From a phage, in NCBI GenBank assembly GCA_028524385.1, contig GCA_028524385.1_3661.2: DNA of 52,202 nucleotides. The stretch is one strand, 5' to 3'. A model generated the notes under the pieces. The model worked only from the letters and a program-made list of their open reading frames with translations. It was not told the origin of the DNA and did no database searches. Of this stretch, positions 9,490-13,775 are shown in pieces (position 1 is the stretch's first letter; every line of letters begins with the position of its first letter). Position numbers and translations under genes: made by a program.

Positions 9490-9735
9490 CTATAGCTCCA
9501 CTAGCAAAGTGCTTTCAAAGTGCCGTTCATGCAGACCGTTGTAAGGGACCACTTCCACAACACCATCACGGACATACGGGGCCATCATAGTGGTATAATC
9601 TCCAAACGGGTTGGTATTGTCACTAACCACAACCACCTTCTGCCCTTCCTTGGCAGAGTGCCAAATAGATCTGCACTTCATCAGGTGTTCTAGAGCTCCA
9701 GGTAAAATTTTGTTACGTTCTTTACGGGTCTTCAT
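9490..9735 (-). CDS. hypothetical protein
   Basis: 81-aa ORF tightly packed between neighbours. Confidence 0.4.
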   Translation of the reverse strand: MKTRKERNKILPGALEHLMKCRSIWHSAKEGQKVVVVSDNTNPFGDYTTMMAPYVRDGVVEVVPYNGLHERHFESTLLVEL

Positions 9736-10181
9736 AACAGGTATAGCTCCTTATGAAAGTGGTCTTTTAATTTCTCACTGAGAAACTTCTTGATACCTTC
9801 CTCTAAAGTGTTTTCGATGTAGTCCAGCTTAACTGCTTCGATGGACATATCATAGATCGCCAGCTCTAAGCTGTCAAGTCCCATCATAGCATGAACCATA
9901 AGATTTTCATCTTCAGATACATTCAGTGGACTTCCTATAACATCTGTAGGTAGGATAGTTTCCCAATTATTCTGGGGGGTAGTTCTCCCACCATCCACTT
10001 TACGGCGCAGTTCGAAGGTGTTCTTAGTGTAGAACACTTCATAAGAAACGATACGACTATCGCTTTCATAATAAACGAAGTTCAGGTAGGAGCCTAGCCG
10101 CAGTCGGCAAACTTCTACCCCAAACCATTGTTTCTTATAAGAATTCAGGCTAATGCTGTCGCATTCACGTTTGCTCAACAC
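9732..10181 (-). CDS. hypothetical protein
   Basis: 149-aa ORF; overlaps stop of upstream gene. Confidence 0.4.
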   Translation of the reverse strand: MLSKRECDSISLNSYKKQWFGVEVCRLRLGSYLNFVYYESDSRIVSYEVFYTKNTFELRRKVDGGRTTPQNNWETILPTDVIGSPLNVSEDENLMVHAMMGLDSLELAIYDMSIEAVKLDYIENTLEEGIKKFLSEKLKDHFHKELYLL

Positions 10182-10197
10182 GGCTATCTCCTTTTTG

Positions 10198-10431
10198 TTA
10201 ATCTTCGTAAATCAGGATTTCTGCTTTAGGTTTTCGTGCTTTCAGGTCCAGCTCTATCCAGTGCACCATAGCTGTTTCAAGAAAAACAGCTTGGATGCAT
10301 CCGTCCTCAGCGTGCCCCACCAACATAACGAGATCTTCACCTTCGTCATCTGCATCACGAACATAAAGAATCTCTCCAGATTCAAAGTCTTTCACAACCT
10401 GATTGCTAGATAATTTACGAATTTTTGCCAT
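10198..10431 (-). CDS. small protein, member of tandem paralog family
   Basis: 77 aa; shares N-terminal pattern (MA..., S/G-E/T-V/I-V) with the three following ORFs. Confidence 0.45.
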   Translation of the reverse strand: MAKIRKLSSNQVVKDFESGEILYVRDADDEGEDLVMLVGHAEDGCIQAVFLETAMVHWIELDLKARKPKAEILIYED

Positions 10432-10432
10432 A

Positions 10433-10696
10433 TCAGAAACCCTCTAAAAAGCTCTTGTAGAAAACAATCTCAGTATCCACACCAGTCACAATCTTGTCGT
10501 TCCTGATTTCATCGGTAAGATAGGTGTCAAAACGCAGAACCTGTGTGGTGTTGTCACACATCCACTCAGCTGTGACCATTGCGAAAATCTTAGCATCTTC
10601 ATTATCTGGTGTGAATGTTACCACCTCACCGCACTTAAACTTTTCGATAGGCTGAGTGTTAGCTTTCGGTTCTGCGATAGTGATTTTTGTGGTCAT
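10433..10696 (-). CDS. small protein, tandem paralog
   Basis: 87 aa; motif KCGEVVTF aligns with PCGTVVSC / APGTVVMF of neighbours. Confidence 0.45.
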   Translation of the reverse strand: MTTKITIAEPKANTQPIEKFKCGEVVTFTPDNEDAKIFAMVTAEWMCDNTTQVLRFDTYLTDEIRNDKIVTGVDTEIVFYKSFLEGF

Positions 10697-10959
10697 TATT
10701 CTCCTCCTTCTTTTGAATAGCTTGTCTCTCCAAGGATGGTAATTTTGGTGTCAAGCTCTGTAACTTTCATGTTTGGCGGCAGATCGTACAACTCATTATT
10801 TTCTAAATCGAACCCCCACACACAATGTTCTCCTGTTTTGACAATCATAACTATGTTTTGAATACCGTCTCCGTCGCAACTTACCACGGTCCCACACGGA
10901 AAACTGTCTGCACGCTTTTTGTTCTTCACTTTAGAATTGAATACAATGCTAGTAGCCAT
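10696..10959 (-). CDS. small protein, tandem paralog
   Basis: 87 aa; MAT...KK...GTVV...GFDL...LP...E.D..I.ILGE pattern shared with 10959..11222. Confidence 0.45.
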   Translation of the reverse strand: MATSIVFNSKVKNKKRADSFPCGTVVSCDGDGIQNIVMIVKTGEHCVWGFDLENNELYDLPPNMKVTELDTKITILGETSYSKEGGE

Positions 10960-11222
10960 TATTGTTCCTCCACCATAACTTCGCCAAGAATTTCTATGCA
11001 GGCATCCATTTCTGTAACAACCAAACTGTGAGGTAGTTCTACAAACACCTTTCTGAACAGGTCAAATACCCCAACATATATGTTTGCAGGATGTGATTTT
11101 ACAACAAGTGCTGTATTCACATCCCCAAGTTCATCAACAAACATCACCACAGTGCCTGGAGCTACTGAGGACAGATACTTCTTAGTTTTACGGTTTGATG
11201 CAAATTTTAACTCTGTTGCCAT
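10959..11222 (-). CDS. small protein, tandem paralog
   Basis: 87 aa; same length and conserved residues as 10696..10959; ATGA start/stop overlap. Confidence 0.45.
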   Translation of the reverse strand: MATELKFASNRKTKKYLSSVAPGTVVMFVDELGDVNTALVVKSHPANIYVGVFDLFRKVFVELPHSLVVTEMDACIEILGEVMVEEQ

Positions 11223-11237
11223 AAATAACCTCCTCTC

Positions 11238-12719
11238 TTACTTAGCGTACTCGATTAATTCCACAGTTTTCCCAAAGCTCGGGATATAATTTTTATTATA
11301 CCCTTCGGTTAGAACCCATAAAGTATCGTACTTTTTCCACTTGTTGTCAACAGCCTTTTGTTCAAAGTTATGCTCAAAGTATAGGTCGGTCAGGACGATG
11401 ACATCTTTTGCATTCGGTATGTTGGCATCCAGATACTCGAACACGCAAGCAGCTGTTGTGCCCCATGTTGAGTGGACCTCATAGTTAATCATCTCGTCTA
11501 TGTTGCCGCGAGTGTATACTTTAACCTCTCCAACCTCAGTTGACCAACAGAACATTGTAACCTTAAACTCTTTATACAGATTGCACAATCCGGTGATTTC
11601 ATTGAACATTTTCTTTAAAGTTCTTTGAGAGATCGAGCCAGAAACGTCTAAAGCCACCACAATATCTATAGTGTTTTCCGGATTACGACCAGGAACAATA
11701 ACGTGCTGGTTCTTGTTTATAGCCCCAACTTTTCGCATTGTGCTGGTCAAAGACCCAGATCGGCGACCAGGTTTTCTGTAGGTCAGTTCAGCCTTTCGTT
11801 TAGACAACATGCGTTGCTTAATGATGTCTATATAGTTGATTACAGGCTTACCTCTGTTCTTGACAAACTCACGCACCGCCTCGGGGCAACGGCCTCCGGA
11901 CGCTTGCATTGCTGCCTCCAGCATATCACCAGAGTCCTGCATGGCCTGATCTTTATCAGATTGGCTGATTACAGGTTGTGGCTGATCATACCCCATAGCT
12001 TTTCCAAGATCATCACTGGTGCCACCGTTCCCACTCATGTGATCATCTGTTTGTCGCTTATCACCTTGAGAGTTCTCACCTTTACCGTTCTTACTTTTAC
12101 CGTTATTCTGATCTCTTTGCTTATCAAGAACTGCATAAACGTTCTCAGCAATCCATCCATGAAACTTCATATCGCAGTAGCAGCTGGCTAAGAAGCCAAA
12201 AGGCTTACCTTTCACGAACGTAGTGCTTTTCCCCTTCGGGAAGAAAACACAAGGAGGCTTGCTAAAGTCCACCACAAGTCCTGTGTTGATAACGTGATCA
12301 CAAGCAATATTGAACAGTTCCGGCTCAAAGCTTTTACCACGGACCAGGTGATCACAGATAATATGCCCCACCTCATGCGACAGAAGAAAGGCCACCTCTT
12401 TCACAGATTTGGGGGAATAGAAAACCTCAGCCATCTCAAACTGCTCGTCAGTTAGAGAAGCCTTAAGAATAGCCTTACGTTCATCAGCCAACCCCATAAT
12501 GAACTCAGGACTGTAATAGATGCGTTTATGGTCGGTTGCCATGGTGGAGCACCATGTATGGTTTTCTACGAACTGCAATCCTGACAGCAGTGTGCCATAA
12601 AACGGCAGCTTTTCAAGGAGATACATACGTGCAGCCTGCAACATTCTCAGGGCATCATCTTTTTGTGAGGCAATGATTTCTGAACTTCTGATATCCATTA
12701 AAACTCCAGAAGGGGCCAT
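11238..12719 (-). CDS. vWA-domain protein with HExxH metallopeptidase-like motif
   Basis: HEVGHIICDH (HExxH) in N-terminal half; MIDAS-type DxSxS motif VVALDVSGSIS in C-terminal half; 493 aa. Confidence 0.55.
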   Translation of the reverse strand: MAPSGVLMDIRSSEIIASQKDDALRMLQAARMYLLEKLPFYGTLLSGLQFVENHTWCSTMATDHKRIYYSPEFIMGLADERKAILKASLTDEQFEMAEVFYSPKSVKEVAFLLSHEVGHIICDHLVRGKSFEPELFNIACDHVINTGLVVDFSKPPCVFFPKGKSTTFVKGKPFGFLASCYCDMKFHGWIAENVYAVLDKQRDQNNGKSKNGKGENSQGDKRQTDDHMSGNGGTSDDLGKAMGYDQPQPVISQSDKDQAMQDSGDMLEAAMQASGGRCPEAVREFVKNRGKPVINYIDIIKQRMLSKRKAELTYRKPGRRSGSLTSTMRKVGAINKNQHVIVPGRNPENTIDIVVALDVSGSISQRTLKKMFNEITGLCNLYKEFKVTMFCWSTEVGEVKVYTRGNIDEMINYEVHSTWGTTAACVFEYLDANIPNAKDVIVLTDLYFEHNFEQKAVDNKWKKYDTLWVLTEGYNKNYIPSFGKTVELIEYAK

Positions 12720-12731
12720 TGGCCCCTGTCA

Positions 12732-13775
12732 TTATTTAACGTGTTTGAAAATACCTGCCAACTCGGTCATTGTCATGCGGGTGGTCTTCATAAGATCTGT
12801 CATAGCTTTCTCCATAATTGGAGATACTACCATAAAGTTTCCTTTAGTGAAACCTTTATTCCAGTCGGTCACCAACAGTGGTTTAAGTCCAGCTCCAAGA
12901 CGTTCACCAGTTAAAGCACAGCATTTGCGAATATACGAACTCTTAAATTGGCTGAACGACAGATCAACTTTCATACCTACATCGTAGAACGTTTGACAAT
13001 AGAAAGTGTAAGCTTTGGCAATCTCAACATCATCAGGTAGTGCAGGAACCTCTTCTGTAAGCTCCTCTTCGACCTCCTGAGTCTCTTTTTCCTCTTCATG
13101 CACCTGTTGCGTCATTTCTTCAATCTCTTCTGTGATAGGCTCGTTTACAATGTCGGAAATGTGCTTCTTGGGTGCACGATAAGTAACTTTAGACATCGGT
13201 AGCATATCTTCCTCCTCTTCTTCGTCAAAGAGTGCTAGTTTATCCTCTTCCGTTCCATATTGCAAGATGAAATCTTCAAAAGTATAATCACCTTTCAATT
13301 TCTCCATACGCTCTTCGCTCAGGTGGAGCATCATCTGCTGGACAATTTTTCGATCAGTTTCGTCTTTAATCAAGACTGCAGTCTTTTTATCTACCAGACA
13401 GTCCTTTAGAGAGTTGCATCTCAATCCCACCACACAACAGTTATCAACCGCATAAGGACCTTCATCATCTATCCGCTCCAGAGATGGGTAGAAAGGATTT
13501 CCCAGCCCGTTTTCATCTGTGTGCATGTCAAAAGGTATAAGGGTATAGTCGCATACTCCATCTCCTAAAAGTTTTTTACCAAATAGGAGGTATTCTTCCC
13601 ATGACAGGTCGAACTCTATATCTCGTTTCCGTGCATTATTCTGTTTGCGTCTATATTTTTTGAGCAAGCGCTCTAACTCTTCTGGTGTATAATATTTTTC
13701 AAGATTCATGAGTCGTCTCTCGTGCTCTGTAAGTGAAGAAATCGTATCAATTGTCTCAACAGATGTCAACATCAA
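12732..13775 (-). CDS. HNH-endonuclease-like protein fused to an unrelated C-terminal segment
   Basis: N-terminal ...ARKRDIEFDLSWEEY...CDYT...SLERIDDEGPYAVDNCCVVGLRCNSLK resembles HNH-type homing endonucleases; internal MSKVTYRA at residue 194 is encoded by a 29-bp sequence repeated inverted at 15035. Confidence 0.45.
   Translation of the reverse strand: MMLTSVETIDTISSLTEHERRLMNLEKYYTPEELERLLKKYRRKQNNARKRDIEFDLSWEEYLLFGKKLLGDGVCDYTLIPFDMHTDENGLGNPFYPSLERIDDEGPYAVDNCCVVGLRCNSLKDCLVDKKTAVLIKDETDRKIVQQMMLHLSEERMEKLKGDYTFEDFILQYGTEEDKLALFDEEEEEDMLPMSKVTYRAPKKHISDIVNEPITEEIEEMTQQVHEEEKETQEVEEELTEEVPALPDDVEIAKAYTFYCQTFYDVGMKVDLSFSQFKSSYIRKCCALTGERLGAGLKPLLVTDWNKGFTKGNFMVVSPIMEKAMTDLMKTTRMTMTELAGIFKHVK
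13173..13201. repeat. 29-bp perfect inverted repeat, left copy
   Basis: tgcacgataagtaactttagacatcggta is the exact reverse complement of 15035..15063. Confidence 0.8.

Follow-up and report, generated by a model that had tools for sequence, protein, structure and literature searches.

A tandem array of four small paralogous genes in an rV5-like phage joins a near-invariant pair to a swappable cassette

Four small leftward genes lying head to tail in an rV5-like phage are paralogs that profile comparisons unite in one superfamily, and the array they form consists of two parts: a distal pair, C and D, which is near-invariant, and a promoter-proximal slot with a swappable content (genes A and B, or a single gene X). 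As the best explanation, to which we give a probability of roughly 0.45, we propose that the products are early, non-enzymatic docking proteins that serve as host-takeover factors, with invariant targets for C and D and a variable or dispensable target for the A/B/X slot.

Results

Position and packing of the four genes

The window, by which we mean the whole stretch of 52,202 nucleotides that was analyzed (contig GCA_028524385.1_3661.2 of GenBank assembly GCA_028524385.1), is affiliated with Vequintavirus and derives from an rV5-like E. coli myophage. The region is 98 to 98.5% identical to many Escherichia Vequintavirus phages with genomes of approximately 137 kb, where all four genes are annotated as “hypothetical protein”. 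The window carries lateral tail-fibre genes, a leftward operon of approximately 17 small genes, a divergent promoter region, and a rightward operon encoding a fucosyltransferase, a MoxR ATPase, rIIA/rIIB, a helicase, methyltransferases, a primase, and a DNA polymerase. The array is found in the leftward operon, directly downstream of the Srd-like “anti-sigma” gene and the DUF2201/VWA gene. The latter (11238-12719, minus strand) encodes a protein of 493 aa with a DUF2201_N putative metallopeptidase and a VWA-like part (Pfam PF13203, E 3e-28; PF09967, E 4e-11), a predicted partner of MoxR. Its gene is a conserved anchor, having a family member directly 3' of it in all Vequintavirus genomes examined as well as in a distant metagenomic phage (L019).

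All four genes of the array are encoded on the minus strand. In the order of transcription they are paralog A (10959-11222, 87 aa, pI 5.0), the promoter-proximal copy, which is present in the Murica-type haplotype only; paralog B (10696-10959, 87 aa, pI 4.9); paralog C (10433-10696, 87 aa, pI 4.5), corresponding to rV5 gp015; and paralog D (10198-10431, 77 aa, pI 4.6, net charge -8), corresponding to rV5 gp016. Genes A and B together with a short spacer upstream of A make up a swap cassette (10697-11237, minus strand), in the place of which rV5-type genomes carry a single gene of 85 aa, X, which is gp014. An earlier reading from the sequence only had placed four adjacent leftward ORFs of 77-87 aa exactly here and had quoted a shared motif, which is indeed present in A and B. 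Its description of tight head-to-tail packing was also right, but not the ATGA-type overlaps that it assigned to the junctions. The A/B and B/C junctions both read TAATG, where stop and start codons share one base, and the C/D junction reads TGAtATG with a spacer of one base. A purine-rich Shine-Dalgarno sequence precedes every start codon and lies within the end of the preceding gene; for paralog A it is GGAGG, located 6 nt before the ATG. The genes of the array are packed for translational coupling.

Some existing annotations of this region call for comment. In rV5 (L003, NC_011041; 1257-2718) the DUF2201/VWA gene is annotated as split into gp012 and gp013, and since the sequence of the 81-aa gp013 is exactly that found at the C-terminal end of the undivided 493-aa ORF of the window, the split probably reflects a frameshift or a sequencing error. 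Several RefSeq phage records have misleading product names. The DUF2201_N+VWA protein and the Srd-like protein (12732-13709), with their homologs in L003-L006, each go under “HNH endonuclease”, and the gp017-like protein (9732-10181 and homologs in L003-L006) goes under “tail protein”, apparently on the basis of the PHROG labels phrog_1314 and phrog_6790. Furthermore, 16 GenBank records of the MG0656xx series (e.g. MG065644 and MG065674) are labelled “Campylobacter phage” with C. jejuni as host and carry this rV5-like E. coli region with 98-99% protein identity. Their host labels look doubtful.

Evidence that the genes are paralogs

In pairwise comparisons only A and B are clearly related. They are 38% identical with a Smith-Waterman z of 19, and none of 1000 shuffles reached the observed score. 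Support is marginal for B-C (z 4.3), C-D (z 3.8), and B-D (z 3.0), and the similarity of A to C and to D is not significant. Each protein matches a PHROG HMM over approximately the whole profile, A (8e-43) and B (5e-41) matching phrog_10698, C (9e-62) matching phrog_12861, and D (5e-55) matching phrog_12046.

The question was settled by profiles, built from orthologs and variants gathered in other genomes and metagenomes. With hhalign the A/B/X profile aligned to C with 93% probability (P 3e-7, 75 collinear columns) and the A/B/X/C profile aligned to D with 92% probability (P 7e-7, 70 collinear columns). The observed scores of 37-40 were reached by none of 200 column-shuffled controls for either comparison (mean approximately 10, sd 2, none above 19). 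The negative controls, the neighbouring gp018 and the Seunavirus protein gp217, gave non-significant hhalign P values of 0.04-0.56. An HMM built from A, B, and X, with neither C nor D included, was also run against the 360 ORFs of at least 40 aa in the window; C (E 9.9e-7) and D (E 3.7e-4) ranked directly after A and B, with the next match at E 0.019, and no fifth copy was found among these ORFs. Collectively, the profile comparisons show A, B, X, C, and D as members of one superfamily. The proposed tandem family of paralogs thereby stood up, all four genes being linked by profiles; the expectation that their similarity would exceed that of shuffled sequences held pairwise for A-B, marginally for B-C, C-D, and B-D, and not for A-C and A-D, where only the profiles make the connection.

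To the three groups into which PHROGs splits the family, the profiles used here add a new link that unites them, and in the rV5 genome paper the word “paralog” is never used. Kinship to two other small proteins of such loci was considered and dropped. For the neighbouring gp018 the hhalign P values were 0.035-0.56, and for the 86-aa Seunavirus gene (PVP-SE1 gp217, GAP31_032), which had drawn attention through where it lies, how long it is, and a WGF motif, they were 0.04-0.13. Genes of the latter type, 85-86 aa in Seunavirus and the Klebsiella relative, are located between the Srd-like and VWA genes (L004 3168-3428, L005 3178-3435, and L006 3198-3458) and encode a WGFR motif that recalls the WGFDL of B.

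Selection within the array and exchange of the cassette

The sequence-only reading had also noted that such families are often under diversifying selection, which is not supported here, orthologs being under purifying selection. Comparisons of orthologs gave dN/dS values of 0.01-0.02 for C at dS 0.35-0.68, with synonymous to non-synonymous changes of 20:1 (against rV5), 24:1, and 44:7 in three comparisons; the values were 0-0.13 for D, 0.14 for B, and 0.28 for A, the last from few changes. Between paralogs dN/dS cannot be interpreted because the synonymous sites are saturated. With so many synonymous changes under purifying selection, the ORFs are shown to be genuine genes. The identity of C is 93% or higher in 118 of 118 GenBank records, and that of D ranges from 88 to 100% in the loci that were compared.

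No such near-invariance is seen in the promoter-proximal slot. It holds one gene (X) in 74 of the 118 records and two in the remaining 44, the same number in which A is found at 90% identity or more. When the window is compared with rV5, naam, and Pr121LW the nucleotide identity is 95-100% on either side of A+B and drops to 0-50%, or to gaps, between approximately 11200 and 10720. X is approximately 40% identical to A and to B alike, with about equal scores, and together with the A''+B'' pair of a diverged relative (see below) there are three discrete haplotypes in the slot: A+B, X, and A''+B''. The variation is not gradual; it is a discrete replacement of a cassette. Measured from the window, the dS of the flanking VWA gene is 0.28 for the A+B phage Aya and 0.14-0.18 for the X-type phages rV5, naam, and Pr121LW. 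The haplotype thus does not follow the flanking VWA gene, which indicates that the cassette has been exchanged by recombination.

The C-D pair also moves as a unit. In the diverged relative L013 the segment 3258-3900 is approximately 90% identical in DNA to 10060-10696 of the window, while its flanking genes are 60-75% identical. This island of recent exchange consists of C-D and the first approximately 100 nt of the gp017 gene.

As for X (L003 2734-2991), it is nearer to A in the middle of the protein (columns 23-45, BLOSUM score 54 against 29 for B) and nearer to B in the C-terminal half (93 against 65 for A). It could be a chimera of A and B generated by unequal crossing-over, or it could simply be closer to the ancestor.

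Distribution and copy number

A word-indexed protein search with A alone returned nothing beyond proteins 93-100% identical to it, including one fragment, and failed to detect even B, so the wider searches relied on tblastn against phage genomes, the family alignment, and a full HMMER scan. The HMMER scan with the family profile across 1.84 billion representative proteins gave 12 matches, nine of which, some of them fragments, come from this phage group. The other three are giant adhesin-like proteins (P0046-48) and were rejected as spurious, since only a repeated 24-residue strand motif in their DUF11/Cna-B repeats matches. Only two loci were found in IMG/VR, and the 118 GenBank phage records with the family are all rV5-like. 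So few matches in 1.84 billion proteins mean that the family is narrow.

Copy numbers were compared across related phages as the sequence-only reading had advised, and they amount to 0, 1, 3, or 4. Seunavirus (GAP31, PVP-SE1) and the Klebsiella relative have no copy in their 8.4-kb loci, where the gp017 homolog comes straight after the VWA gene. One copy is present in L019, the distant metagenomic phage of 123 kb, in the order Srd-like, VWA, member, gp017-like. The rV5-type genomes have three copies (X = gp014, C = gp015, and D = gp016), and the window type, represented by 44 of the 118 GenBank records, has the four copies A, B, C, and D. Four are also found in the diverged relative (L013-L015), where A'' is 57% identical to A and B'' is 64-70% identical to B. 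Finally, single C-like and X-like genes are located at separate sites in the lineage of L016 and L022. The simplest reading of this history is a tandem expansion in place from one gene beside the VWA gene.

Two further observations belong here. In L019 an IS605 OrfB/TnpB-type gene (Cas12f1-like_TNB; 119-1258) heads the same operon, directly preceding the Srd-like gene. Among the BASEL Vequintavirus isolates, DrSchubert (Bas50) has the A+B haplotype, and A matched JohannBauhin only once, at approximately 40% identity, which is the X-type pattern.

Expression timing

According to the rV5 genome paper, genes 11-26 form one transcription unit and the late genes are 27-66. A scan with the sigma70 consensus found divergent promoter matches upstream of the leftward operon, and the candidate early promoter of this operon is a match upstream of the Srd-like gene (13741-13769, minus strand; TTGACA-17-TACGAT with an extended -10 TG), although a consensus match by itself does not demonstrate function and promoter-like sites are not enriched in the window (23 found, compared with 18.4 +/- 4 expected in shuffled sequence). 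No terminator-like sites were detected on the minus strand between 13741 and 7581. From the promoter matches, the gene layout, and the rV5 paper we infer that the array is transcribed early by host RNA polymerase as part of the gene 11-26 operon. A second sigma70-type match (9849-9877, minus strand; TTGACA-17-TATGAT, 11/12) falls within the gp017-like gene, shortly after the end of the array, and it might drive the distal operon genes separately.

The main text of the rV5 paper lists the virion proteins that mass spectrometry detected, and the products of the array are not in this list; a search of the supplements for gp14-16 labels found none either. Being encoded outside the late gene block and missing among these virion proteins, they are presumably non-virion proteins. 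Literature searches on the expression or function of rV5 gp014-016, or of Vequintavirus early genes, returned nothing specific.

Protein properties and predicted fold

The proteins are approximately 9-10 kDa each and the family is acidic throughout, with pI values of 4.2-5.7 and net charges of -1 to -9 (pI 4.5-5.0 for the four in the window), which argues against nucleic-acid binding. Invariance among the paralogs is limited to three residues, namely Met1, one Gly (in F..G.VV), and one Ile; beyond these they share a pattern of alternating hydrophobic positions. This pattern describes a fold and not an active site, and a catalytic signature is absent. Searches of Pfam, NCBIfam, and PDB sequences gave no match for the family; borderline Pfam matches to aSelB_III, Kelch_HCF, and BrnT were far below the cut-offs and were ignored.

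Structure prediction of one member, a check suggested beforehand, was carried out for B. With the family alignment AlphaFold2 gave an all-beta model of six strands with a mean pLDDT of 78.9, which is predicted to fold as a small beta-barrel of the SH3/Tudor-like type carrying one additional strand at the N-terminus. As in SH3-like small beta-barrels generally, which have five or six antiparallel strands, the model closes into a small barrel that can be superposed on known members. A model of D from D orthologs only was likewise all-beta with the strand order of B, but it was weak (pLDDT 66, below 50 at the C-terminus) and recovered A and X in Foldseek only at E values of approximately 0.4. The membership of D in the family rests for this reason on the sequence profiles and not on structure.

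Discussion

Above we described an array with a near-invariant distal pair and an exchangeable promoter-proximal slot. A role of its products in host takeover or anti-defence is plausible, judging from their location, size, charge, and fold, and host-takeover and anti-defence genes usually sit in such early operons. In the reading that we prefer, host RNA polymerase would transcribe the genes early within the operon equivalent to rV5 genes 11-26, and the proteins would be host-takeover factors that have no enzymatic activity and work by docking onto other macromolecules. The targets of C and D would be invariant, most likely host machinery that is itself conserved, and what the A/B/X slot encodes would recognise a variable or dispensable target. 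The near-invariance of C-D fits a conserved phage partner equally well. Cellular barrels of the Tudor/KOW type often bind RNA polymerase or ribosomal sites. These would be the first candidate targets for the predicted barrels, bearing in mind that a fold alone does not establish binding.

The alternative with the largest share of the remaining probability, although we find it unlikely, is that each paralog inhibits or decoys a different immune system and that replacement of the A/B/X slot switches the counter-defence specificity. Small acidic early proteins are what would be expected, and so are a slot whose content changes between genomes that are elsewhere 95-100% identical, the three discrete haplotypes, the lack of step between haplotype and flanking VWA gene (Aya with dS 0.28, the X-type phages with 0.14-0.18), and the scattered single members of the family in another phage lineage. 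The difficulty is with C and D, which are fixed and near-invariant in 118 genomes with dN/dS values down to 0.01, something unusual for arms-race genes. Moreover, selection within each allele class is purifying and not diversifying, and no annotated family in PHROGs, Pfam, or NCBIfam that could point to such an activity is matched.

A conserved phage partner would also explain the invariance of C and D, and the neighbourhood offers one. The proteins could be accessory partners, i.e. adaptors, substrates, or regulators, of the phage MoxR ATPase and DUF2201/VWA pair in a phage-internal process. In Vequintavirus as in the distant L019 a member directly follows the DUF2201/VWA gene, the L016 lineage has a member approximately 2 kb upstream of this gene, and the divergent operon of the window includes the gene for the MoxR ATPase. 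Phage N4 (L025; 3156-6307 and 9461-19401) shares its module order with the rightward operon of the window, namely MoxR-like ATPase gp24, DUF2201/VWA gp25, rIIA, rIIB, helicase, and DNA polymerase, and the structurally similar small beta protein gp21 is encoded three genes upstream of gp24 and gp25. We nevertheless regard this partnership as quite improbable. N4 gp21 is without sequence relationship to the family (hhalign P 0.058), the Srd-like and DUF2201/VWA genes are retained in Seunavirus and in the Klebsiella Vequintavirinae, whose 8.4-kb loci have no member, and proteins of the DUF2201 type are present in 461 phage records as against the approximately nine proteins found by the family profile. 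The linkage may simply come from all these genes being part of one early operon.

Translational coupling and equal dosage would favour yet another possibility, a hetero-oligomer of the paralogs that would act as one unit, for instance as a small scaffold or ring, and in which X replaces A+B. The one-base stop/start overlaps and the one-base spacer, the similar sizes, the long N-terminal strand in the model, which could pair between subunits, and the common travel of C-D as the approximately 90% identical island in a 60-70% identical background in L013 would all suit such an assembly. Single copies stand alone in L019, L016, and L022, and we consider the hetero-oligomer a long shot. That the ORFs arose by chance or are decaying duplicates without function is in line with the lack of any function or database annotation for the family, but this has next to no probability and is effectively refuted by the purifying selection with its many synonymous changes, the intact genes in 118 genomes, the ribosome-binding sites, and a fold predicted with reasonable confidence.

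Returning to the docking proteins that we prefer, a more specific version can be formulated as a two-tier, Tudor-like set. C-D would hold on to some conserved machine of the host, for example the beta lobe of RNA polymerase or a ribosomal site used by cellular Tudor/KOW domains, or would be a specificity adaptor for MoxR-VWA, and A/B/X would retarget the scaffold to a variable host factor. We put this forward as a speculative idea with small odds of being right. If it is true, it would provide a first function for the family and for the MoxR/DUF2201 module of hundreds of phages.

Four “hypothetical proteins” that current resources split into three unrelated families are brought together here as one defined family with a predicted fold and an expansion history (1, 3, and 4 copies), in which an invariant pair is clearly set apart from a swappable slot. 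Because the BASEL isolates cover both haplotypes and grow on E. coli K-12, a focused experiment is feasible. The practical value is modest unless the target is found.

Comparison with known systems

The closest known counterparts are in rV5 itself. Its gp015 and gp016 are 99-100% identical to C and D and have the same position in the operon, whereas gp014 shares its PHROG with A and B and is only approximately 40% identical to each, rV5 having one gene where the window has two. The three PHROGs concerned (phrog_10698, phrog_12861, and phrog_12046) are all labelled “unknown function”. A place among virion structural proteins does not suit the array, which is outside late genes 27-66 and not in the main-text list of virion proteins.

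At the level of the predicted fold the comparison is with SH3-like, Tudor, and KOW barrels, including the SH3-like domain of uL2, the Tudor domains of PHF19 and SMN, the KOW of Spt5, the C-terminal Tudor of UvrD/PcrA, and the RNA-polymerase-interacting domain of CarD. No relationship to these exists at the level of sequence, and the phage proteins differ from them by an additional strand at the N-terminus and by a tail that is acidic. The binding partners of such barrels are not transferable from the fold alone. Membership in the RNA-polymerase-interacting Tudor-like domains of CarD_TRCF/Mfd or in the C-terminal Tudor of UvrD was rejected. For KOW motif proteins (NusG/Spt5, uL24) there is no match to Pfam PF00467, and the likeness would be one of predicted fold only. 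The alignment has no conserved aromatic positions common to the paralogs that could form an aromatic cage of the eukaryotic Tudor type. In the viral structure library BFVD the nearest neighbours from outside the family are uncharacterised phage proteins of 70-90 aa, N4 gp21 among them, with similar size and predicted fold (Foldseek E 1e-3 to 3e-2, TM 0.55-0.75). Given its hhalign P value, N4 gp21 was not accepted as a homolog, its resemblance being at fold level only.

Tandem early paralogs are known from other large lytic phages, for example modA and modB of T4, which are adjacent, duplicated, and diverged, and encode enzymes of known activity. In comparison with these, the proteins of the present array are tiny and without a catalytic signature. 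The dozens of tiny early genes in large lytic phages form the principal store of activities for host takeover and counter-defence, and we see the array as a new, narrowly distributed family of this familiar kind, the small early accessory proteins of large lytic phages.
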